Positions 41,415 to 51,798 of a DNA stretch of 64,000 nucleotides are shown here, piece after piece; position 1 is the first letter of the stretch; every line of letters starts with the position of its first letter. The notes under the pieces are model-generated. The model ran no database searches, was not told the origin of the DNA, and worked only from the letters and a program-made list of their open reading frames with translations. Made by a program: the position numbers and the translations under genes. The stretch is from an uncultured bacterium (GTDB taxonomy: Bacteria; Deinococcota; Deinococci; Deinococcales; Trueperaceae): assembly GCA_964495325.1 (NCBI GenBank), contig CAZBVI010000002.1, positions 125,729-189,728 on the forward strand. Reading direction: 5' to 3'.

Positions 41415-41482
41415 AAGACAATCCTCCACACCGTAACGTTCCGTCATAAGCCTTGCCGGCCCCAGACGCCACCCTGGTTATC

Positions 41483-43210
41483 ATGCCGGATGTGAGCCAG
41501 CCGGACCCGACCAAGCCCCTCATCGTTCATGCGGACCGGACGCTGATGCTGGAAACGTTCAACGACCTGGCCGAGCCAGCCCGGGCGGCCATCGCCCCGT
41601 TCGTCGAGCTGGAGAAAAGCCCGGAGTACCTGCACACTTACCGCATCTCCCCTCTGTCGCTGTGGAACGCGACCAGCGCGGGCTTCACGGCCGAACAGAT
41701 GCTGCGGGCCCTGCAGAGCTTTGCCAAGTTCCCACTGCCGCAGAACGTGGTCACGGATATCAAGGAGCTGTCCGGCCGCTGGGGCCGACTGCGCCTGTTA
41801 GGTGAGGAAGGCCGCCTAGTCTTACGTGTGGATCCGGCAGACGCGTCGCTGCTGCTGGAGCTCGGGAGTCACGACCACGTGCGGCCACTGCTCGGGGAAC
41901 GCCTTGGCGAGCACGTTACACAGGTGCCCCTGGCAAACCGGGGCAGCCTCAAGCAGGCGCTGCTGGCGCTCGGCTGGCCGGTGCAGGACCTGGCCGGCTA
42001 TCAGGCGGGGGAAGCACTGGACATCTCGCTTGCGAAGCACTTGGACGTGCGCCCGTATCAGGAGGCCGCTGCCCAGGCCTTCTACCGGGCGGGCAGCAGC
42101 GAGGGCGGCTCCGGCGTTGTGGTGCTGCCGCCAGGCTCCGGCAAGACGGTCGTGGGCATGGCCGCCATGTCGCTGGTGGGCCAGCGGACGCTTGTGCTGA
42201 CCACCAACCGGACCAGCACCGGACAGTGGCAGCGGGAGTTGCTCGCCAAGACATCGCTGCAGCCCGAACAGGTCGTCGAGTACGGTTCCAGGACCAAGGG
42301 CATCGGCGCCGTCACGCTCTGCACCTACCAGATGCTGACCACCAGGAAACGCGGCGCTGAGCCCGGAGCCCAAGGCGAGTACCCGCACATGCAGCTGTTC
42401 CGTGACCACCAGTGGGGCCTGGTCATCTATGACGAGGTCCACATGCTGCCTGCCCCGGTCTTCAGGCTGACGGCCGAGCTGCAGGCACTGCGTCGCCTTG
42501 GGCTGACGGCCACGCTCATCCGGGAGGACGGGCGCGAGGGCGACGTGTTCAGCCTCATCGGCCCGAAACGCTACGACGGGGCGTGGCGCGAGCTTGAGCG
42601 GGACGGCTGGATCGCCAGCGTTCACTGCACCGAGGTCCGCCTGGCGCTCGACGACGCGGGCCGCCGCGACTACGCGCTCACAGACCCCCGGCTCCGCTTC
42701 CGCCTGGCGGCCGAGAACCCCCGCAAGCTGAGCCTGATGCGCAGGATCCGGCAGCTGCACGCTGGCGAGCCGACCCTGATCATCGGCGTCTACCTGAGCC
42801 AGCTGAAGCAGATCGCCGCCGCCCTGGACGTGCCCCTGGTGACGGGCGAGACGCCGCAGGAGCGTCGCGATGCGTTGTTCGACGATTTCCGGGCCGGCCG
42901 CATCCGTACGCTGGTGCTCTCGAAGGTCGGAAACTTTGCCCTGGACCTCCCCGACGCCTCGGTGATGATCCAGGTTTCGGGCACGTTCGGCTCCCGGCAG
43001 GAAGAGGCGCAGCGGATGGGTCGGCTGCTGCGGCCGAAAGCACCCGGCCAGGGCGCCCAGTTCTACTCGCTGGTCACGCGCGAGACCGACGAGGAGACCT
43101 TTGCCCACAACCGCCAGCGGTTCCTGACCGAACAGGGCTACACTTACCGCATCATGAGCGAGGACGAGTGGCTCGACCCGCAGCCGCCGCGCCTCGAACT
43201 GCTCAACTGA
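41483..43210 (+). CDS. xpb: XPB/ERCC3/Rad25-type SF2 DNA helicase
   Basis: DVRPYQEAAAQAF, Walker A LPPGSGKT, DEVH, and GLTATLIREDGRE, the R-E-D motif diagnostic of XPB. Also QRMGRLLR, plus an N-terminal damage-recognition-like domain. The start is taken at ATG 41483; the ORF opens at 41453. Confidence 0.85.
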   Translation: MPDVSQPDPTKPLIVHADRTLMLETFNDLAEPARAAIAPFVELEKSPEYLHTYRISPLSLWNATSAGFTAEQMLRALQSFAKFPLPQNVVTDIKELSGRWGRLRLLGEEGRLVLRVDPADASLLLELGSHDHVRPLLGERLGEHVTQVPLANRGSLKQALLALGWPVQDLAGYQAGEALDISLAKHLDVRPYQEAAAQAFYRAGSSEGGSGVVVLPPGSGKTVVGMAAMSLVGQRTLVLTTNRTSTGQWQRELLAKTSLQPEQVVEYGSRTKGIGAVTLCTYQMLTTRKRGAEPGAQGEYPHMQLFRDHQWGLVIYDEVHMLPAPVFRLTAELQALRRLGLTATLIREDGREGDVFSLIGPKRYDGAWRELERDGWIASVHCTEVRLALDDAGRRDYALTDPRLRFRLAAENPRKLSLMRRIRQLHAGEPTLIIGVYLSQLKQIAAALDVPLVTGETPQERRDALFDDFRAGRIRTLVLSKVGNFALDLPDASVMIQVSGTFGSRQEEAQRMGRLLRPKAPGQGAQFYSLVTRETDEETFAHNRQRFLTEQGYTYRIMSEDEWLDPQPPRLELLN

Positions 43211-43227
43211 GGCACCGGAGGCCCACG

Positions 43228-43488
43228 ATGTCCCAGACCACGCCCTCACCGGATCATGACGAAGTGCACCCGGTTAGCGACGCACTCGGCATGCTGCACC
43301 GCGACCTGACCGTCATCGAGGTAACTGACGCCACTGACCTCACCAGCCTGCTGTCGGACACTAGAATGGCCGAGCTCGTCTTGGCCCGCATCGGAACCAC
43401 CGCCGCCGTGGTGGAACCCCGAAACGTGCCCAAGCTCCTGGCGGCGCTCCAGAAGGCCGGCCACACTCCGACGGTGCTGGGCGCGTGA
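43228..43488 (+). CDS. Small conserved-looking hypothetical protein (86 aa), translationally coupled inside the XPB operon
   Basis: A GGAGG Shine-Dalgarno sequence precedes the ATG at 43228. The stop overlaps the GTG of the next gene (GTGA). Confidence 0.6.
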   Translation: MSQTTPSPDHDEVHPVSDALGMLHRDLTVIEVTDATDLTSLLSDTRMAELVLARIGTTAAVVEPRNVPKLLAALQKAGHTPTVLGA

Positions 43489-46061
43489 GCAGGCAGGAGC
43501 AGCTGCTCGGCATCTTCCTGGACTCGCTGGAGCACGAAGACAGCGAGCAACCGGACGAACCCCTTGTGACGCAGGACCCCGGACTGTTCTCCTTCGAGCG
43601 CCGGCTCGACCTGATGACGATGCCTCAGCTGACGCGCGTCATGAGGCGTTACGCTCCCGCCAGGCGGGCCACCACCCGGGCGGCGGCCATCAAGGCGATC
43701 AAGGGGGCGCTCGCGTCCCCGGACCTGCTCGCGGCGCTTATAGCGGGCCTGTCGCCGTTCGAGCGGCTGGTGCTGGAGGAGCTCAAGCGGCGCGGGGGCA
43801 AAGCCAGCGGCTGGCAGGTCTTCATGACCGCGGTCCTGCACGGCGCGGAACCCGAAAACGCCGCGGGAGACGGGTCAGCAAACTATGACTACCAGCGTTC
43901 TTTTGGCATCCGCTCGATCGCGGCCCGTGAGCTGGCGGAGCTCTACGATGACGGGCTCCTGCAGACCGGCAGGCTTCGTACCGACTGGTCCCGGTTCGGC
44001 TACAGCACTCACGCGGACGACATGGTGGGCGCCCCGCCACAACTGCTCAACCGGCTGAAACCGCGGCCGCGGCCCCCGGTAAAGAGGCTCACCCTCGAGC
44101 CGGCCGCCCAGGCCGTGCTGGATGCCCGGCATCCGGCGGCCGTCGTCCTGGAACTGCTGGACGTCCTGCAACTCGTCTCGAGCGAGGGCGGCCTGCACGT
44201 AACCAGGAACGGCGCGCTCGCCAAGCCGTTCCTGAAGCGACTCCACAAGGAGCGGCCCCACCTGGCGGACCGGCTCGCGCCCCTCCTGCTGCTGCTGTCC
44301 ATGCTCGGTTTCGTGCGGAAGCCGCACGATGACTCCGTACCGCAGCCCTGGCCACTCGTCCCGGGCGCAATCTCCGCTTTCCAGCGAATGCCGCTTCGCC
44401 TCATGTACGCCAAGCTGATCGACGCCACCGCCTCGGTCAACGACCCGGACATCGCCCTCGCGTGGGCCGAAAGCCCCTTCGGCACCAGCAGCATCGAACC
44501 GTTCTGGACGGCGATACTGCAGAGCCTGGTGGCGCTGCCCGACCATGGCGTCCCGGTCGAGGCGGCGGTCAACGGCCTCTGGGATCAGGTGCTTGCGAAA
44601 GCCTTCGGCGGCCGGGTACAGCACTGGCGGGACAACGCGAGGCATCTTGACCTGCTTGAGAGGCTGCTCCGCGAGTTCCTGCCTTCCATGGGCCTGATCG
44701 CCATTGGCGGCGAAGTAAGCGACATCAACGAACTGGTCCCGTTGATCGCACCCGCCGCCGGCCTGGCATGGTACGCCGAATCCCGTGCCATGGCCGAGGG
44801 CGCCTCGGCCATGCCGTCAATCGCCCTGACCGACGATGAGCAGCAGCTTGAGGCGTCGAGCCCGGCCCTGCTGATCCAGCCGAACTTCGAGGTGCTTGCC
44901 TACCTGGACCTGCTCACCTCCGGCGCGGTCCGGGCCCTATCCTGCGCCGGTATCGAGCGGCTGGACGCTCAAACAGCCACTTTCAGGATCGACCGGAACA
45001 GCGTCACCCACGCACTTGACTCGGGCATGGACGCAGCCGAGCTTCTGAGCCAGCTGGAGCGCCACGCCCCTGGTGTGCCGGAGAACGTGGCCGACGCCAT
45101 CAGGGACTGGGCGGCCCGGCGGGACCGGCTCAAGGTCCACACTGGAACCCGCCTCATCGAGTACCCGGACGAGGCCGCACGCGACGCCGCCCTGAAGCAC
45201 GTCGAAGGCGGCCGCGCGATCGCCGAAAGGTTCGTACTGCTCGCCGGGAACTCACCCGAGCCCCGCGTGGCTGCCGAACATGATTACCGCCCTGGCATCG
45301 AGCCCGCCCTCAAGGTCCGGGCCAACGGCACGATCCGTGCCGACGGGCCCCTCAACCTGCCGGCCCGAGCCGTCCTGAAGCAGCTCACCACGCAGACGGG
45401 CAAGCACACGTTCCGGATCACCGAAGACGCCGTGCGCGCGCCCGTGTTCCGGCAGAAGCTTCACGCGCTTCTGCAGGATCAGGCGATCAACGGGGTACCC
45501 CGGGAGCTGGCCGCCCTCCTGGCCGCCTGGTCCGGCCAGGCGCAGAAGCCGGTGGTGGCACCGGCCGTCCTGTTCCAGCATCCGGAGGCTGGCGCCTGGG
45601 CCACCAACCCGAAGTTCCGCGACCTGCTGGGCACCCAGCTGAGCCCGAGCACCTACCTGGTCGCTCCCGGCAAGGAGGCCGCGTTGCGGACGCTGCTGGA
45701 CGAGCTGGGTGTGGGCCATCAGTCCGAGTGGTCCGAGGGCGGACCCGCGGTCACCGCCATCCCGGGCGAGGGCGAACTCCAGACCGGGCTCAGCACCCGC
45801 AAGATGCGCGAGGCGCTTGAAGCTGCGATTGAAGCCGGGCACCACGTCGAGCTTCGCTACGCGCCGGAGAACGTGCGCTACACGCATCGCGGCTACAGCC
45901 GACGCAGCCCGGGCAAACTCCGCACCGAGTTGCTCATCCCGGAAAGCATCTCGTACGAGGGCTCGACGCCGTACCTGGATGCCTTGACCGCCAAAAGGAA
46001 GTCCGAGCGTTACATCCGGATCGGCTACATCGAGGCGATCGGCGTGCGGACGGCGGCGTAG
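43485..46061 (+). CDS. Large XPB-associated protein carrying a copy of the XPB N-terminal (DRD/helicase-associated) domain and a WYL-like C-terminus
   Basis: 858 aa. The segment ALLIQPNFEVLAYLDLL...TFRIDRNSVTHALDSGMDAAELLSQLERHAPGVPENVADAIRDWA parallels the XPB N-terminus PLIVHADRTLMLETF...TYRISPLSLWNATSAGFTAEQMLRALQSFAKFPLPQNVVTDIKEL. The C-terminal HHVELRYAP...LIPESISYEGSTPYLDALT...RYIRIGYIEAIGV fits the WYL-domain pattern. Confidence 0.7.
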   Translation: MSRQEQLLGIFLDSLEHEDSEQPDEPLVTQDPGLFSFERRLDLMTMPQLTRVMRRYAPARRATTRAAAIKAIKGALASPDLLAALIAGLSPFERLVLEELKRRGGKASGWQVFMTAVLHGAEPENAAGDGSANYDYQRSFGIRSIAARELAELYDDGLLQTGRLRTDWSRFGYSTHADDMVGAPPQLLNRLKPRPRPPVKRLTLEPAAQAVLDARHPAAVVLELLDVLQLVSSEGGLHVTRNGALAKPFLKRLHKERPHLADRLAPLLLLLSMLGFVRKPHDDSVPQPWPLVPGAISAFQRMPLRLMYAKLIDATASVNDPDIALAWAESPFGTSSIEPFWTAILQSLVALPDHGVPVEAAVNGLWDQVLAKAFGGRVQHWRDNARHLDLLERLLREFLPSMGLIAIGGEVSDINELVPLIAPAAGLAWYAESRAMAEGASAMPSIALTDDEQQLEASSPALLIQPNFEVLAYLDLLTSGAVRALSCAGIERLDAQTATFRIDRNSVTHALDSGMDAAELLSQLERHAPGVPENVADAIRDWAARRDRLKVHTGTRLIEYPDEAARDAALKHVEGGRAIAERFVLLAGNSPEPRVAAEHDYRPGIEPALKVRANGTIRADGPLNLPARAVLKQLTTQTGKHTFRITEDAVRAPVFRQKLHALLQDQAINGVPRELAALLAAWSGQAQKPVVAPAVLFQHPEAGAWATNPKFRDLLGTQLSPSTYLVAPGKEAALRTLLDELGVGHQSEWSEGGPAVTAIPGEGELQTGLSTRKMREALEAAIEAGHHVELRYAPENVRYTHRGYSRRSPGKLRTELLIPESISYEGSTPYLDALTAKRKSERYIRIGYIEAIGVRTAA

Positions 46062-46151: not shown

Positions 46152-47213
46152 CTACGCAGTGCCCCCGGACTGTCGAATGCCGGCCCAGCCTAGATCAGTC
46201 AGCCTGTTCACTGTCAAGTCAATCTGCCTTCTGGTGAACTGCTTCTTCCGCTTGTTCCAGGCATAGGTGTGGGCAACCACTTCATCCAGGGATCGGTGTC
46301 CCTCGTGTTCCATAATCCAATGTACCGTAGACAGAAGCTCCAGCCCGAACGGCGACTCGAATCCGTCAACCAGCTGCGCTACCCGGCTGAACCGCGTACG
46401 CGTCTCCGGCTGGTTCGCAAGGTACTTCTCCGCTGCTATGGCGGCATCGGGCATCACGCGTAGCTCCTTGGCTGGCTGATCGCCACCGTCGTGGAAACCG
46501 TGAACCATATGACCCTCCATTCGATGGAGCACATGACGGAGGTTTTCCGCGTACGGACCATAGTGGGCTTTCTTGAAGTGCAGCCGCAGAGGTTCGCCTG
46601 CCTCCTGCAGGAAGTACATCAACTTATGCAGTTCCAACAACGAAACAGAGGGGTCCATCAGGCCATTCAAGTACCGAGTCATGAGCTCTAGCAGGGCTGC
46701 TCTGCCGGGCGTCATATCGGGCCTCTTGCTTATGTCAGCATTATATTCGCCATACCGCGCAGCATCCGGCGGATAGACTTTGATCAGAACGCCAGGCAAA
46801 TCCTGTAGTGCTTCGTCAATCAGGGGCCTGACCTGCGACCAGTCGAGCCCACCGAGCCCACTACCGAGAGGAGGTATGGCTATCGATTCAATTTGGTACT
46901 CACGGATGGTCTCTGCCAAGGCTTCCAAGCCACTGGCAATATCCTCTATTCGACTCTTGCTCCGCCAATGTCGCTTTGTCGGGAAATTGATGATCAGTCG
47001 CGGGCCAGTCAGCATCCCCGTTGTATGAACGAACATGCGGCCAGGCTGCACTTCGCCTTGCGCACAGGCCCGAGCGTATTCTTTGAAGTTCTCAGGGAAG
47101 GCGCGTTTGAACTGGAGTGCGATACCACGGCCCATGACACCAACACAGTTAACAGTGTTGACAAGTGCCTCAGCTTCATCGGCCAGAATGTCACCCTTCA
47201 CGTAGGAAATCAC
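46152..47213 (-). CDS. darG: DarG antitoxin (macrodomain ADP-ribosyl-DNA glycohydrolase plus C-terminal domain)
   Basis: ISYVKGDILADEAEALVNTVNCVGVMGRGIALQFKRAFPENF...IINFPTKRHWR...IAIPPLGSGLGGLDW is a macrodomain matching DarG. A GTG at 47213 is preceded by a strong AAGGAGG Shine-Dalgarno sequence. An alternative ATG lies at 47243. Confidence 0.85.
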   Translation of the reverse strand: MISYVKGDILADEAEALVNTVNCVGVMGRGIALQFKRAFPENFKEYARACAQGEVQPGRMFVHTTGMLTGPRLIINFPTKRHWRSKSRIEDIASGLEALAETIREYQIESIAIPPLGSGLGGLDWSQVRPLIDEALQDLPGVLIKVYPPDAARYGEYNADISKRPDMTPGRAALLELMTRYLNGLMDPSVSLLELHKLMYFLQEAGEPLRLHFKKAHYGPYAENLRHVLHRMEGHMVHGFHDGGDQPAKELRVMPDAAIAAEKYLANQPETRTRFSRVAQLVDGFESPFGLELLSTVHWIMEHEGHRSLDEVVAHTYAWNKRKKQFTRRQIDLTVNRLTDLGWAGIRQSGGTA

Positions 47214-47230
47214 TGCATCCTCCTTCTTGG

Positions 47231-47938
47231 TCAGTAGTACCAATCAGGCTCAATTGAAACCCTCGGCGAATCGCGACCAACAGGCAAGACCTCCCTGACT
47301 AAATCATACGTTTCCCGCGTGTGAACTCCCACAACCTCGATCAGCTCCCATGGGAACGACTCCTCAACGAGAAACTCCGCCTGCTTGCGCTCTTTGATTC
47401 TCGATGGCACGCCGGGCCCACTCCATTGGTGGGCTCTCACTGCCTTCCAGTCAATTTCGCTCAGCTCGGCTCGATCAGCTCTGTCTTCGAAGTAGTAGGA
47501 ACCAGCATTACTCAGAGTGAAAGCCCATCGCTTGTCGTTGTTCTCGGCCCAATCAATCGAAGCGTTCAGGTCGGCGACAAGATGAAGTATTGGACCCTGC
47601 CCACCGCCATAGTTGACACCCTCTCGGTTCCCCTTGTGAAGAAGGTAGAGCATTACCGACCGAGGGCAGAAGTAGAACGGTACGCATGCTCCAACGTACA
47701 GCCCCGGACAGCTGTTAATCTCCAAGGACAGCCGTCTGGCCTTGATCTCTGCCATTCCAACGGGGGTCCCTGGCAACACCTTCGTACGTGCAGCTCGATC
47801 ACACCACAACCGACCTTCCGACACCAGAGATGGCAACTTATCGACGTGGACGATGTGATAAATCTTGGGATCAGGCGGAACGCTCAATAATGACTCCAGT
47901 GTCGGCATTATACGCAGTGACTTGATGCAAGGCGCCAC
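47231..47938 (-). CDS. darT: DarT toxin (DUF4433 ssDNA thymidine ADP-ribosyltransferase)
   Basis: IYHIVHVDKLPSL, VPFYFCPRSVMLY, KQAEFLVEESFPWELIEVVGV and a C-terminal EPDWYY. These motifs are characteristic of DarT as known from Thermus and Mycobacterium. Confidence 0.85.
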   Translation of the reverse strand: MAPCIKSLRIMPTLESLLSVPPDPKIYHIVHVDKLPSLVSEGRLWCDRAARTKVLPGTPVGMAEIKARRLSLEINSCPGLYVGACVPFYFCPRSVMLYLLHKGNREGVNYGGGQGPILHLVADLNASIDWAENNDKRWAFTLSNAGSYYFEDRADRAELSEIDWKAVRAHQWSGPGVPSRIKERKQAEFLVEESFPWELIEVVGVHTRETYDLVREVLPVGRDSPRVSIEPDWYY

Positions 47939-47960
47939 ACGGCACTAGTAGGTAGCTCCG

Positions 47961-50378
47961 GTGGCACACACGCTCCGGACCATGCTTAAGCCACATCGAC
48001 GAAGTAATTTCGCACCGACAAGCCGAGCTGCATCACCACCGGCTACGATAGCCCTGATGCCTTCGGACACAGCAGCCCGCATTGTCCAGCTCGAGCGAGA
48101 GATCGCCTGCATGTCGGCTGACCTTGCAGAATTACGGGCTGAACTCACGGCGCTCCGGTCAGCCGAAGTCAGTACCGCAGTGAATCGCAACTCGCCGCCT
48201 TCCGCCAAGCTCGCGCTCTACTCATCGCTCTTCACCGGCAGAACGGACGCCTATGCGGTTCGCTGGACCAGTAATCGCACGGGCAAGAGCGGCTGGAGCC
48301 CGGCTGTGCGTGGCGGATTCTACACGGATGCTGCGACCGATGCTGACCTGCTGCCAATTGATGAAATGGTGCTCGCATGGCACCTCACCGGGTGCACACC
48401 ACAGGGGCGGGACTTTCACGCGGGCCTTTACCCAATGATGACTGACGACACCTGCAAGCTCCTCGCTTGCGACTTCGATGGCGGGTCATGGCGCGAGGAC
48501 ACCTCCGCTTATGCCCAGGCTTGTGCCAGTCACGGGGTACCCGTGGCGATTGAGATCTCGCGATCCGGCGACGGCGCTCACGCATGGCTGTTCTTTGAGG
48601 AAGAGGTGCCGGCTCAGGCCGCCCGGCGACTCGGAGCGGCCCTGCTTCAAGCTGGAATGGCCATGAGCGCATCCCTCGGACTCGGCAGCTACGACCGCTT
48701 CTTCCCGGCCCAGGACCTGTTGCCCAGCCGCTCCCCAGGACGGATGCAGCTGGGCAACCTGATCGCGCTCCCGCTACAAGGCACGTGTCGCAAACGTGGC
48801 ACCACGGTGTTTGCCGATCCGCGCAGCTGGCAGCCGTTCGAAGACCAGTTCGCCTACCTCTCAACGGTGCAGCGCTTCAGCTCGGAGCAGCTCGCGGCTC
48901 TCATCAGCGACCTGCGACCAGTAGTGGCCGGGCCAGCAAACCGGGTATCAACGCTGCCGCAGTCTCTGCTTCCGCTATCGGTGGAACAGATCGAACTGCG
49001 ACATGGGGCGACGCTTGACGTCCCGACTGACCGGCTTCCCCCAGGTCTGACTGCCGAACTGAAGCACCTCGCGTCTGTGCCCAACCCGGAGTTCTACCGG
49101 AAGCAGGCGCAGCGCTTCAGTACATTCGGAACACCACGCCACGTCCTCTGCTTCCAGCTCGACGGAAACACGTTGCGGTTGCCGCGTGGTCTGCACGACC
49201 AGGCTCTCGAGTTATTCGCCAAGTCCGGTATCACGGCGTCCGTCACCAGCACGATCAAGGTGCCACCCGGAGCATCTTTGAGCTTCACCGGCGATCTGAG
49301 GCCCGAACAGACAGAGGCAGTCTCACGAATCGCGCCCCACGACACCGGCGTACTCGTCGCCCCTCCGGGAGCCGGAAAGACCGTGATGGCTTGCGCACTC
49401 ATCGCGGCCAGGAAGGTCCCAACCGCAATCATCGTGAACCGCGCTGAGCTCGTGACCCAGTGGCGCACACGGTTGACAGAGTTCCTTGACATCGAAGACC
49501 GGCAGATCGGACAGCTCGGTAACGGTCGCCGCAAACGCAAGGGGCTGGTCGACTTGATCATGCTGCAGAGCATCAGCCACCGAAGTGCCGACCCATCAAT
49601 ACTTGCCGAGTACGGCCAGATCATCATCGACGAGTGCCACGCCATCGCCGCACCAGCTGCCGAAGCCGCCGTCCGCAACGTCGCGGCAAAGTATTGGCTG
49701 GGACTTACCGCCACGCCTTACCGTGCGGATCAGCTGGACGAGCTCATTACGATGCAATGCGGCCCGGTCCGCTTCGAGATGGAGGCGGAAGCGACTTCGG
49801 AGAAGCAACTGATCGTGCGCACCACGACCTTCACCACGGACGAACCCGGACACGACGGCGCATCGATCCAAGCGATGTACGGCGAGCTCGCCGGCGACTC
49901 CGCCCGCTCCAGGGCCATTGCCGACGATGTAGTCGCCGCCCATCAGCAGGGACGCCGCAGCCTCGTTCTCACGAACCGGCTCCAGCACCTTGAATCCCTC
50001 GAAGAGCTGTTGCGCGATCGACTCGACCATCTGCAGGTACTGCACGGCCGGTTGACCAGACGCGAGCGGGCTGCCGTCCTCGCCTCCGTCTCCCGGCAAG
50101 ACTACGAGCCCACAGTCCTGCTCGCGATAGACAAGGTCGCCGGCGAGGGCCTCGACCTGAGTGGGCTTGACACGCTCTTCCTCACGATGCCGATCTCGTT
50201 CCGCGGACGCATCGTTCAACAGGTCGGCCGGATCGGTCGGAGTGCCGGCGAGGCCAACACCGTCATCCGGGTGCACGACTACCATGACGAGCGTGTCCCT
50301 CTCTTCGATCGAATGTTCAGGAAGCGACGGCGAGTACTGGCGAGGTTGGGCTGGCAGCAGGAGTGGGCTACCGATTAG
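47961..50378 (+). CDS. Archaeo-eukaryotic primase (PrimPol-like) domain fused to an SF2 DExH helicase
   Basis: AEP motifs: LLACDFDG (DxD), SRSGDGAHAWLFF (sGxGxH) and YDRFFPAQD. Helicase motifs: APPGAGKT, IIIDECH, GLTATP, AGEGLDL and QQVGRIGR. The start is uncertain: GTG 47961, ATG 47982 or ATG 48057. Confidence 0.8.
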   Translation: MAHTLRTMLKPHRRSNFAPTSRAASPPATIALMPSDTAARIVQLEREIACMSADLAELRAELTALRSAEVSTAVNRNSPPSAKLALYSSLFTGRTDAYAVRWTSNRTGKSGWSPAVRGGFYTDAATDADLLPIDEMVLAWHLTGCTPQGRDFHAGLYPMMTDDTCKLLACDFDGGSWREDTSAYAQACASHGVPVAIEISRSGDGAHAWLFFEEEVPAQAARRLGAALLQAGMAMSASLGLGSYDRFFPAQDLLPSRSPGRMQLGNLIALPLQGTCRKRGTTVFADPRSWQPFEDQFAYLSTVQRFSSEQLAALISDLRPVVAGPANRVSTLPQSLLPLSVEQIELRHGATLDVPTDRLPPGLTAELKHLASVPNPEFYRKQAQRFSTFGTPRHVLCFQLDGNTLRLPRGLHDQALELFAKSGITASVTSTIKVPPGASLSFTGDLRPEQTEAVSRIAPHDTGVLVAPPGAGKTVMACALIAARKVPTAIIVNRAELVTQWRTRLTEFLDIEDRQIGQLGNGRRKRKGLVDLIMLQSISHRSADPSILAEYGQIIIDECHAIAAPAAEAAVRNVAAKYWLGLTATPYRADQLDELITMQCGPVRFEMEAEATSEKQLIVRTTTFTTDEPGHDGASIQAMYGELAGDSARSRAIADDVVAAHQQGRRSLVLTNRLQHLESLEELLRDRLDHLQVLHGRLTRRERAAVLASVSRQDYEPTVLLAIDKVAGEGLDLSGLDTLFLTMPISFRGRIVQQVGRIGRSAGEANTVIRVHDYHDERVPLFDRMFRKRRRVLARLGWQQEWATD

Positions 50379-50652
50379 CCCACCTGGCGAATCAGCCGCC
50401 ACTCGCGTCTGCTCAACCGTAATGTCTAAGCGCTGGAGCGGATCGCCGGGTAGATTCGGCTTGTTTCAGCCCGGGACACGGACTGTCGTCCGTTCGTACT
50501 GATTCGTCACGGCGCCATGAGTTGTCCTGTCGCTACGGATTTTTCCCGCGTCCCTGAGCTGCTACCAACCAATGCCAGCGAGCCTTCCGATAGTGCGAAA
50601 CGGCCGCCTACCTTAAACCATCACTTTAGATATTCATGACATATTAAAGCAC

Positions 50653-51798
50653 ATGTTCAAGCGGTCCCTACAACTGCCACCCCCCGGCGCAGAGACGCTC
50701 TTCCTTTGGGGACCGCGCCAGACGGGCAAATCCACCCTGCTCCGCCAAGCCTACCCGGATGCCCTTTGGATCGACCTCCTGAAGTCCGAAGAGTACTGCC
50801 GCTACCTACAGAATCCCGAGTTCCTGCGCCAGGAGCTGGCTGCACGATCCACCCCGCAAGTGGTGATCGACGAGGTACAGAAGGTTCCAGCCTTACTGGA
50901 CGAGGTGCACTGGCTGCTGGAGAACGGTGGTCCCAGCTTCGCACATTGCGGCTCCAGCGCCCGCAAGGTAAAGCGCGGTGTAGCCAACCTCCTGGGCGGC
51001 AGAGCCATACGTTTCGAACTCTTTGGCCTCTCAGCACACGAGATCGGACCGGACTTCGATCTGGACAGGCTGCTGAATCACAGCTACCTGCCCAGCATCT
51101 ATCAATCGGCCAAACCCAGGGCTCGGCTCAATACATACGTCTCGGATTACCTGCGCGAGGAGGTGATGGCTGAGGCGCTGGTTCGCAATGCATCAATCTT
51201 CGCTGACTTCCTGGAGGTAGCAGCACTGGGCGACACGGAACAGGTGAACTTCACCAACATCGCACGCGAGACCGGCACCTCCAGCCCGACAGTAAAGGCG
51301 TATTACGGGATTCTCGAGGACACGTTGCTCGGCAGGTGGCTACCTGCTTGGCAGAAGCGCCCGAAGAGGCGCACTGCAGTGGCTCCCAAGTTCTACTTCT
51401 CCGACGTCGGCGTGGTTAACCAGCTCGCGCGGCGGGGCACCGTGGAACCCAGGTCGGAACTCTACGGCAAGGCCTTCGAGAACTGGGTTCATCACGAGCT
51501 GACAGCCTACGCCTCCTACAGCAAGTCGTACGCCACGCTCAGTTTCTGGCGGCTGACCAGCGGCGCCGAAGTCGACTTCATAGTGAACGACATGCAGCTC
51601 GCCATCGAATCGAAAGCTTCTCACCGGCTCGGGGACCAGCACTTGCGCGGCCTGCGGGAACTGGCGAAGGACCATCCAGAGGTAGGCAACCGGGTGGTGG
51701 TGAGCCTCGAGCAGAAAGCCAGAACTACCTCTGATGGCATCCTGATACTGCCGGCACGCGAGTTCGTGAAGCTGCTATGGAGTGGAGAGTGGTACTGA
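50653..51798 (+). CDS. AAA-family ATPase with a DUF4143-like C-terminal domain
   Basis: LFLWGPRQTGKSTLL (Walker A), VVIDEVQK (Walker B), and a C-terminal FENWVHHEL...SFWRLTSGAEVDFIV (restriction-endonuclease-like tail typical of AAA_14/DUF4143). Confidence 0.8.
   Translation: MFKRSLQLPPPGAETLFLWGPRQTGKSTLLRQAYPDALWIDLLKSEEYCRYLQNPEFLRQELAARSTPQVVIDEVQKVPALLDEVHWLLENGGPSFAHCGSSARKVKRGVANLLGGRAIRFELFGLSAHEIGPDFDLDRLLNHSYLPSIYQSAKPRARLNTYVSDYLREEVMAEALVRNASIFADFLEVAALGDTEQVNFTNIARETGTSSPTVKAYYGILEDTLLGRWLPAWQKRPKRRTAVAPKFYFSDVGVVNQLARRGTVEPRSELYGKAFENWVHHELTAYASYSKSYATLSFWRLTSGAEVDFIVNDMQLAIESKASHRLGDQHLRGLRELAKDHPEVGNRVVVSLEQKARTTSDGILILPAREFVKLLWSGEWY

Follow-up and report, generated by a model that had tools for sequence, protein, structure and literature searches.

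The 64,000 bp stretch analysed here, termed the window, corresponds to positions 125,729 to 189,728 of the forward strand of contig CAZBVI010000002.1 (GenBank assembly GCA_964495325.1), from an uncultured bacterium of the Trueperaceae (Deinococcota). Between 46.1 and 51.8 kb it harbours a DarTG toxin-antitoxin pair on the minus strand, divergently oriented from a gene encoding a fusion of an archaeo-eukaryotic primase (AEP) domain, of the primase-polymerase (Prim-Pol) kind, to an XPB-like superfamily 2 (SF2) helicase, which is itself followed by an ATPase gene matching a candidate phage defence system. An earlier inspection of the nucleotides and their translations, hereafter the sequence-only reading, had drawn attention to the adjacency of the darT and helicase genes, and suggested that the latter might encode an enzyme dedicated to repriming or translocation in partnership with DarT. 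The comparisons described below indicate instead that the region is probably a horizontally acquired defence island composed of three self-contained modules (DarTG2, the Prim-Pol/XPB-like helicase and PDC-S01), in which the adjacency of darT and the helicase reflects incidental co-residence rather than an obligate partnership. The principal features are as follows.

46152..47243, minus strand: darG antitoxin, a macrodomain ADP-ribosyl glycohydrolase with a C-terminal DarT-binding domain (longest open reading frame (ORF); NCBIfam, PADLOC and Pfam)
47231..47908, minus strand: darT toxin, of the single-stranded DNA (ssDNA) thymidine ADP-ribosyltransferase family (likely ATG at 47908, 225 aa; longest ORF from GTG 47938, 235 aa)
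47909..48056, no strand: 148 bp between the divergent genes (GC 0.57), in which the GCTCCGG direct repeat occurs but no regulatory element is supported
48057..50378, plus strand: AEP(PrimPol)-XPB-like SF2 helicase fusion (773 aa; longest ORF from GTG 47961, 805 aa)
48063..48164, plus strand: N-terminal long helix or coiled coil of the fusion (residues 3-36 of the 773 aa form; DSSP of the model, RIxxLExE consensus)
48207..48899, plus strand: AEP Prim-Pol domain of the fusion (residues 51-281; PF22548, PADLOC, Foldseek and invariant columns)
48984..50330, plus strand: XPB-like module of the fusion (beta/alpha domain at residues ~310-400 and two RecA-like lobes at ~413-758)
50653..51798, plus strand: AAA_14 and DUF4143 ATPase, PADLOC phage defence candidate PDC-S01 (Pfam DUF4143 4.9e-29, AAA_14 6.2e-18; PADLOC PDC-S01 9e-54)

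Domain content of the DarTG and primase-helicase modules

The identification of the two minus strand genes as darT and darG in the sequence-only reading was upheld by three profile libraries. The antitoxin matched the NCBIfam antitoxin_DarG model NF048014 across 338 of 338 positions (2.2e-140; 467.7 bits against a cut-off of 250), as well as the PADLOC DarG profile (1.5e-137) and the Pfam Macro domain (2.9e-27). Likewise, the toxin matched Pfam PF14487 across 201 of 201 positions (3.1e-58; 197.3 bits against a cut-off of 22.5), NCBIfam toxin_DarT NF048013 (3.3e-65; 219.6 bits against a cut-off of 150) and PADLOC DarT (1.1e-64). The genes are arranged in the order darT then darG, with either a 17-nt gap or a short overlap between them. 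On identical contigs (L001 and L083), the start of darG is called at 47213, giving a 353 aa protein in which the lysine of the FPTK motif, counted from the translation, is K80, the residue named as catalytic in DarG (PMC11543638). DarT retains the KQAEF catalytic glutamate motif along with conserved His and Tyr columns (H-Y-E-type residues).

As the profiles, K80 of FPTK and the catalytic motifs of DarT all match, this is a canonical macrodomain-type (DarTG2) pair and, on the evidence of its sequence, a predicted toxin-antitoxin/abortive-infection module: DarT would ADP-ribosylate thymidine in ssDNA, and DarG would both reverse this modification through the macrodomain carrying K80 and sequester DarT. 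The pair resembles the DarTG2 systems of Thermus aquaticus, Mycobacterium tuberculosis and enteropathogenic Escherichia coli (EPEC) in scoring far above the curated equivalog cut-offs for both genes, in gene order, in the FPTK K80 and C-terminal domain of DarG, and in the H-Y-E-type residues of DarT. It differs in that DarT shares no more than 57-61% identity with the nearest DarT clusters and, unlike these relatives, lies outside a type I restriction-modification (R-M) locus.

The longest plus strand ORF extends from 47961 to 50378 and encodes 805 aa, including the segments KLLACDFDGGSW and SRSGDGAHAWLFFEE. The description of this ORF in the sequence-only reading, as combining PrimPol motifs with a full DExH helicase core, was confirmed by the translation, by Pfam and by helicase motifs I (PPGAGKT), II (DECH), III (LTATP) and VI (QQVGRIGR). 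Residues 83-313 of the 805 aa ORF match the AEP-TOTE family PF22548 (4.8e-71; 239.4 bits against a cut-off of 27) over 228 of 230 model positions, in agreement with the TOTE-type database label given in the sequence-only reading; the protein also matches ResIII (4.7e-23), Helicase_C (9.3e-10) and the PADLOC profile for CRISPR-associated PrimPol (8.5e-87). Among 75 homologues, AEP motif I (D139-F-D141), motif II (S170-G-x-G-A-H175) and D213, which is likely to represent motif III or the third carboxylate, are invariant. The same is true of G438, G440, K441 and T442 of the Walker A motif and of Q721, G724 and R725 of motif VI, while D525, E526, C527 and H528 of motif II, and R728 of motif VI, are at least 90% conserved.

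A model of the fusion generated by AlphaFold2 from these 75 homologues (mean pLDDT 88.8, pTM 0.78) comprises four parts: a long N-terminal helix (residues 3-36), the AEP domain, which has a block-mean pLDDT of ~88-97 over most of its length, a beta/alpha domain at ~310-400 and two RecA-like lobes. A sequence profile search of the PDB retrieved XPBII (6p4f/5tnu, 2.8e-24) and CAPP, the CRISPR-associated Prim-Pol of Marinitoga (7nqd, 1.3e-8). When the model was compared with the PDB using Foldseek, the region from residue ~310 onward aligned with archaeal and eukaryotic XPB (5tnu/6p4o/6p4f) over ~480-490 columns with E values of 1e-17 to 1e-20, and the AEP domain aligned with 7nqe/7nqf/7p9j (TM score normalised to the target of 0.77-0.80, rmsd 3.0-3.7 A). 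Motifs and model together therefore describe a member of the CAPP-like Prim-Pol clade of the AEP superfamily joined to an SF2 helicase, with intact catalytic motifs and, by prediction, the corresponding enzymatic activities.

The fusion shares parts with three named groups of proteins, yet conforms to none of them. Of the solved structures, CAPP (7nqd, 7nqe, 7nqf, 7p9j) comes closest to the AEP domain, whether judged by profile or by fold; the two align at the GxH-W-FF and LGNLI-PL motifs, and the AEP catalytic residues correspond to those of this biochemically characterised Prim-Pol (7nqd/7nqf). By contrast, the AEP domain of the window is fused to an XPB-like helicase, the CAPP chain in the PDB is named with a TPR region, and the window protein scores 44.5 bits against the NCBIfam PrimPol_Msp model, which has a cut-off of 200. 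No cas domains were found among the scanned neighbouring ORFs, nor any CRISPR-like array in the 64 kb window, and hence the locus is not a CAPP locus.

Similarly, the AEP domain belongs to PF22548, a family named after TOTE systems, and RefSeq labels the E. coli family members 'TOTE conflict system archaeo-eukaryotic primase domain-containing protein'. The acronym is expanded as TPR, OB, TBP, Effector in the passage of PMC12458937 that cites Aravind, Iyer and Burroughs 2022. This domain is the only TOTE feature present: a Pfam search of all large ORFs between 40.6 and 57.7 kb detected no TPR, cold-shock/OB domain or TBP gene near the fusion, and no conserved TPR-cold-shock/OB or TBP partner emerged across 161 loci encoding relatives of it. 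The locus is consequently not a TOTE system, and only the domain family name applies.

The XPB/Rad25/Ssl2 proteins (archaeal XPB-Bax1 and the XPB of TFIIH) provide the top sequence and fold matches for residues ~310-773, including the domain that precedes the RecA lobes. Unlike these, the fusion has a coiled coil at its N-terminus and a Prim-Pol domain, and it falls far below the equivalog cut-offs (83.6 bits against 610 for NCBIfam NF045503; 38.8 against 328.7 for TIGR00603). Its identification as an XPB orthologue was therefore rejected, the protein being XPB-like in fold only; the true host XPB is a separate gene within 41453-46061, meaning two XPB-type motors are encoded within 7 kb.

Were the fusion to act as its domains suggest, the XPB-like motor would use ATP to open, or to translocate on, duplex or forked DNA, whereupon the CAPP-like Prim-Pol domain could prime or extend DNA on the exposed single strand, an activity that may be directed at invading or replicating foreign DNA. 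Some members of the family have acquired a further domain: those of Streptomyces, Nonomuraea and Kitasatospora are ~860-890 aa long and include PF23359 (P0094, P0096, P0104, P0112, P0113 and P0115-P0119, together with the Streptomyces chartreusis plasmid matches H1 and H2). The label 'histone-like nucleoid-structuring protein Lsr2' is attached to some of these, or to features that overlap them, which suggests a fused DNA-binding module.

The choice of start codons determines the extent of the divergent spacer. For darT, ATG 47908 is favoured, with the closest homologues, 218-219 aa in length, covering 96-97% of the 225 aa form, which is also the form called on L083. The fusion is called as 773 aa, from ATG 48057, on two metagenome contigs encoding an identical protein, and as 755 aa on another; ATG 48057 appears the best start because homologues begin a few residues before the conserved RIxxLExE helix, upstream of the 755 aa start. 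With these two starts the spacer is most likely the 148 bp from 47909 to 48056, in place of the 22-118 bp proposed in the sequence-only reading. That reading also held that the two transcription units must share a control region containing a direct repeat of GCTCCGG. The repeat is indeed found at 47955-47961 and 47972-47978, but copies of the heptamer number 29 across the window, against an expectation of 18.95, and the surrounding 251 bp contain a further direct repeat of 7 nt as well as seven inverted pairs of at least 7 nt; as the repeat does not exceed chance, a regulatory interpretation was rejected. A consensus scan of the spacer from 47909 to 48056 detected no sigma-70-like promoter. 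The claim of a shared control region restates the adjacency of the genes, with co-regulation unsupported. A TATAAT hexamer is present on the minus strand at 47912-47907, overlapping the darT ATG.

Co-occurrence of the two modules in other genomes

The association between the fusion and DarTG was surveyed from the helicase side in 161 other loci encoding a full-length relative. Eighty of these were the best of at least 591 confirmed relatives in a scan of one genome per species, taken with up to 10 kb of flanking sequence, 80 were drawn from the 316 relatives found on metagenome contigs, and one (L088) was obtained through an exact-protein look-up. They represent the Actinomycetota, Chloroflexota, Bacillota, Pseudomonadota, Planctomycetota and Verrucomicrobiota, among other phyla; at least 1.5 kb of upstream flank was available for 136 of the 161, and the flanks total 1.89 Mb. 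Using tblastn, phmmer and a DarT profile representing two subfamilies, DarT or DarG was detected in a single locus, L139, corresponding to an unbiased pairing rate of ~0.6%. A plain tblastn search with the DarT of the window missed the L139 protein, which is ~23% identical to it and was found via its macrodomain neighbour, a finding that led to the profile search being undertaken. Statistical co-occurrence with darTG, which the sequence-only reading had proposed looking for through a neighbourhood survey, is hence essentially absent from the family as a whole.

Nor is the pairing retained among the closest relatives of either gene. The nearest relative of the fusion (L088, 66% identity) is found among AAA_14/DUF4143, ATPase_2/DUF234, RHH-PIN and Fic genes, and another at 57% identity (L193-195) forms an operon with a SoFic-type gene, which overlaps the start of the helicase by 4 bp, beside an AAA_14/DUF4143 gene. 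There is no DarT in the locus of a Glaciihabitans relative of 54% identity. On the other side, the nearest relatives of the DarT of the window (57-61% identity) are located within hsdM-hsdS-darT-darG-hsdR loci, while one further relative lies beside an HTH/ImmA pair and another in a region rich in IS elements that contains a second DarT-macrodomain pair; the helicase fusion was found in none of the loci of these DarT relatives. The juxtaposition in the window is therefore specific to its own lineage. Two DarT-macrodomain pairs are present 3.4 kb apart at L189:7001-13157 and L190:7001-13157, with an IS66 transposase between them, the second pair being in reversed order (a 309 aa macrodomain protein, then a 330 aa DarT).

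L139 belongs to a tight clade, in which DarT proteins are 77-94% and helicases 82-87% identical; between this clade and the window, DarT is ~20-25% and the helicase 35-37% identical. In L139 itself, DarT (Pfam 4e-36) and a short, 176 aa macrodomain protein are encoded divergently from an HTH_37 gene and the helicase gene that comes after it. The macrodomain proteins of the clade lack the C-terminal domain of DarG. The state of the helicase differs between the five sampled members:

L139, 8239-12283: helicase intact
L192, 4420-8196: helicase intact, with a 127 bp divergent spacer and no HTH gene
L191, 4296-8127: helicase split at its N-terminus (639 aa and a 66 aa ORF)
L169, 7030-9192: helicase reduced to a 190 aa stub
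L172, 8001-9227: helicase gone, leaving a 24-residue HTH remnant

The pairing in this clade is one ancestral juxtaposition, from which the DarT and macrodomain genes remain intact in five of five members. Their retention where the helicase has decayed or been lost argues against DarT being dependent on the helicase.

Genomic context of the helicase family and of the island

No gene was a universal neighbour of the helicase across the 161 loci, although several families recur. The most common are Fic-domain genes (SoFic, PDC-S04 and RhuM-Fic/PDC-S23), found in 34 loci, of which 27 have them on the same strand, mostly within 1.3 kb, and about 13 with operon-like gaps. Such loci include L193:5922-9379, L194, L195, L093, L095, L097, L098, L102, L140, L141, L143, L149 and L151, and in a subset of the family the Fic-helicase combination looks like a real two-gene architecture, of which we found no description. 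An AAA_14/DUF4143 ATPase (PDC-S01) is the immediate neighbour of the helicase in 16 of the 161 loci, in L088, in L193 and in the window (among others in L008, L021, L053, L073, L126, L143, L147, L159 and L193), and the two may travel together. Less frequent are tyrosine integrases within 4 kb (eight loci), AbiEi/AbiEii (five to six loci) and Mrr_cat-AbiEi_2 (five loci).

PADLOC names for these neighbours, such as SoFic, PDC-S04, PDC-S23/S05 and PDC-S01, correspond to known or candidate defence genes. The helicase family therefore keeps the company of the 'hitch-hiker' genes of defence islands (SoFic, PDC-S01, PDC-S04/S05/S23 and AbiE), exemplified by PDC-S01 downstream of the fusion in the window, but unlike them is not itself a system or candidate in PADLOC v2, where only its separate domains match models.

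Small HTH genes also adjoin some family members. On an Acinetobacter baumannii plasmid (NZ_CP038501.1; L187:7132-10271), the higB toxin, an HTH regulator and the AEP-helicase are encoded in this order on one strand with gaps of 25-30 bp, and in L139, L169 and L191 the gene immediately before the helicase is of the HTH_37 (HigA-like) type; the small HTH protein may be a regulator or antitoxin-like partner of some helicases. A 182 aa protein often encoded just upstream of the helicase was considered as kin to the E. coli 'inovirus-type Gp2' and rejected, there being neither similarity nor any family match.

The family is frequent in E. coli, where a match was obtained in 876 of 5,426 complete genomes, 684 of them at 80% coverage or more (about 13-16%); WP_000233452.1 is an example of a natural allele from O157:H7. 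For instance, on the chromosome of O157:H7 strain E32511 (L188:3820-14361) the helicase is found with int, HTH, DUF3987/YfjI, inovirus-type Gp2 and IS element genes, within an integrase-bounded island that adjoins the urease (ure) genes. Full-length copies were detected on 96 of 72,556 plasmids and in none of 50,697 phage genomes.

In the window, the island is flanked on one side by XPB and its 858 aa partner and on the other by a sugar ABC-transporter/GH38 operon. Two further features complete the locus:

41453-46061, directly upstream of darG: host XPB (585 aa ORF; ERCC3_RAD25_C 1.9e-44) and its 858 aa Helicase_C_3 partner
50439..50460, plus strand: terminator-like hairpin, 60 nt past the stop codon of the helicase

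The hairpin provides weak evidence for transcription of the helicase separately from the next gene, such sites in this region being no more numerous than shuffled expectation. The same darTG-helicase locus is present in seven contigs of the same species. No empty site, a related genome lacking the island from which its boundaries could be set, was found; the 858 aa flanking protein has no close relatives, its best match on another contig (itself 4 kb long) being 53% identical and its named matches, from Trueperaceae and Deinococcota, only 39-42%, which indicates that the host lineage is poorly sampled. No direct repeats, tRNA genes or Rfam elements were found flanking the island, which itself contains no integrase, excisionase or relaxase.

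Base composition distinguishes the island from its surroundings. The GC content at third codon positions (GC3) is 0.85-0.87 in the host genes on either side (XPB, its partner, the ABC transporter and GH38), compared with 0.61-0.64 for darT and darG, 0.74 for the helicase and 0.75 for the AAA_14/DUF4143 gene. All three modules consequently look foreign, and the difference of ~0.12 between darTG and the helicase-ATPase pair, which we estimate at roughly 4-5 binomial standard errors, fits separate origins or arrival times; we treat GC3 as supporting evidence only. The window as a whole is a compositional mosaic, with GC3 of 0.55-0.70 in the genes at 35.5-41.4 kb and 0.85-0.87 both in the XPB operon and in the sugar-utilisation genes downstream, such that foreign or atypical DNA reaches beyond the darTG island.

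Relationship between DarTG and the primase-helicase

We infer a defence role for the fusion, and its independence from DarTG is favoured because only one of 161 relatives is paired, the closest relatives of both genes are unpaired, and the helicase decays in the L139 clade while the DarT-macrodomain genes persist. The same three observations count against the proposal of a dedicated repriming or translocating partner for DarT, and favour the alternative that the sequence-only reading itself had raised, of an independent defence-type gene.

A number of points nevertheless weigh against incidental co-residence. DarT and the fusion are directly adjacent and divergent in two unrelated lineages, which is above the naive genome-wide expectation. 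In relatives of the fusion, the slot beside the helicase is often held by Fic, another nucleotide-transferring toxin domain, sometimes with a 4 bp overlap of the helicase start. The surveyed loci were chosen in order of their similarity to the protein of the window and were not de-replicated. The DarT profile drew on 122 sequences from two highly divergent subfamilies; a DarT1/NADAR-type toxin could escape it. In the literature, we found neither a study testing any member of the helicase family nor a tested anti-phage system of such an architecture. Finally, there is an experimental precedent for a DarTG system that requires a helicase: DarHTG is a DarTG variant in which a UvrD-like helicase, DarH, is essential (PMC13069673).

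Several of these points would be accommodated by a modular toxin-helicase system, in which the helicase is the constant sensor or processor and the toxin is exchangeable, being Fic/SoFic in many relatives, where translation of the two is sometimes coupled, DarTG in the window and the L139 clade, and AbiEii elsewhere, often with an AAA_14/DUF4143 ATPase present. In some variants of this scheme the helicase-primase would expose, create or recognise ssDNA for DarT, or would detect phage replication intermediates and so release the toxin; in another, DarTG would act as a guard of the helicase, comparable to PrrC in type I R-M systems. The independent origin of the divergent juxtaposition on two occasions is in keeping with such a system, as are the Fic genes in 34 of the 161 loci, with their bias towards the helicase strand, their operon-like gaps and the SoFic overlap in L193-195, and the fact that the closest DarT relatives adjoin another ResIII-type translocase, HsdR. 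The resemblance to DarHTG, in which a DarT toxin module likewise adjoins a helicase gene, is limited: DarH is an SF1 UvrD-like protein encoded in the same operon, alongside an ARH-like antitoxin, DarG3 (PMC13069673), whereas the helicase of the window is an SF2 XPB-like protein with a Prim-Pol domain, divergently transcribed and not operonic, and its DarG is of the macrodomain type. Moreover, DarT is missing from 160 of the 161 loci, ~70% have no Fic, DarT or AbiE beside the helicase, the GC3 of darTG stands apart from that of the helicase, and the L139 clade has kept its DarT-macrodomain genes through the decay of the helicase. DarTG and SoFic, both entries in PADLOC, and AbiE are in addition generally known as self-sufficient systems. 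We therefore regard a modular system as unlikely; if it were real, it would be the second, mechanistically different case of a helicase-assisted DarTG after DarHTG, and would extend the dependence of DarTG variants on helicases.

It is also conceivable, albeit quite improbable in our judgement, that the AEP-helicase is the replicative primase-helicase of a mobile element, with DarTG as its addiction or defence cargo. Fusions of AEP Prim-Pol domains and helicases are the classic replicases of plasmids and integrated elements, such as ORF904 of pRN1. The tyrosine integrases near eight loci, the 96 plasmid-borne copies and the E. coli O157:H7 copy within an int-HTH-DUF3987/YfjI-Gp2 island, the backbone of which recurs on E. 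coli plasmid B, would all suit an element of this kind. However, the motor is a monomeric-type SF2 XPB-like protein, unlike replicative helicases of the hexameric SF3, SF4 or MCM kinds, the fusion is absent from all 50,697 phages, and no origin-like or partner gene is conserved across the 161 loci. The carrier plasmids are large (45 kb to over 1 Mb among the matches listed) and would have replication genes of their own, while the island in the window is devoid of integrase, excisionase, relaxase and flanking direct repeats.

The least probable relationship is that of damage tolerance, whereby the Prim-Pol/helicase would re-prime beyond, or bypass, ADP-ribosyl-thymidine lesions and so allow the host to survive leaky DarT activity. 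The lesions introduced by DarT obstruct replication on ssDNA, and PrimPols of the AEP type can re-prime past lesions. The sequence-only reading had described mycobacterial darTG as co-operonic with dnaB; the genes are adjacent (Rv0058 dnaB, Rv0059 darT, Rv0060 darG), and the DarG of M. tuberculosis co-purifies with replisome proteins, namely DnaB and DnaG (PMC7689832). Despite this and the adjacency of the genes in the window, such a role is very doubtful given that DarT is near the fusion in just the one surveyed locus, that DarTG relatives in type I R-M loci function without the helicase gene, that the helicase family is overwhelmingly without DarT, as in the 876 E. coli genomes, and that DarT is intact where the helicase is truncated, split or lost (L169, L191 and L172).

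Co-residence of independent modules in a defence island thus remains the preferred explanation for the juxtaposition, and treating it as such keeps a speculative annotation as a 'DarT repair partner' from spreading. DarTG is well described, and the fusion belongs to a family known by its database name. This primase-helicase family is found in defence island and mobile cargo contexts across many phyla, frequently in operons with Fic-domain genes, and these contexts are reason enough to consider it for direct anti-phage assays in E. coli, a tractable host in which natural alleles exist.

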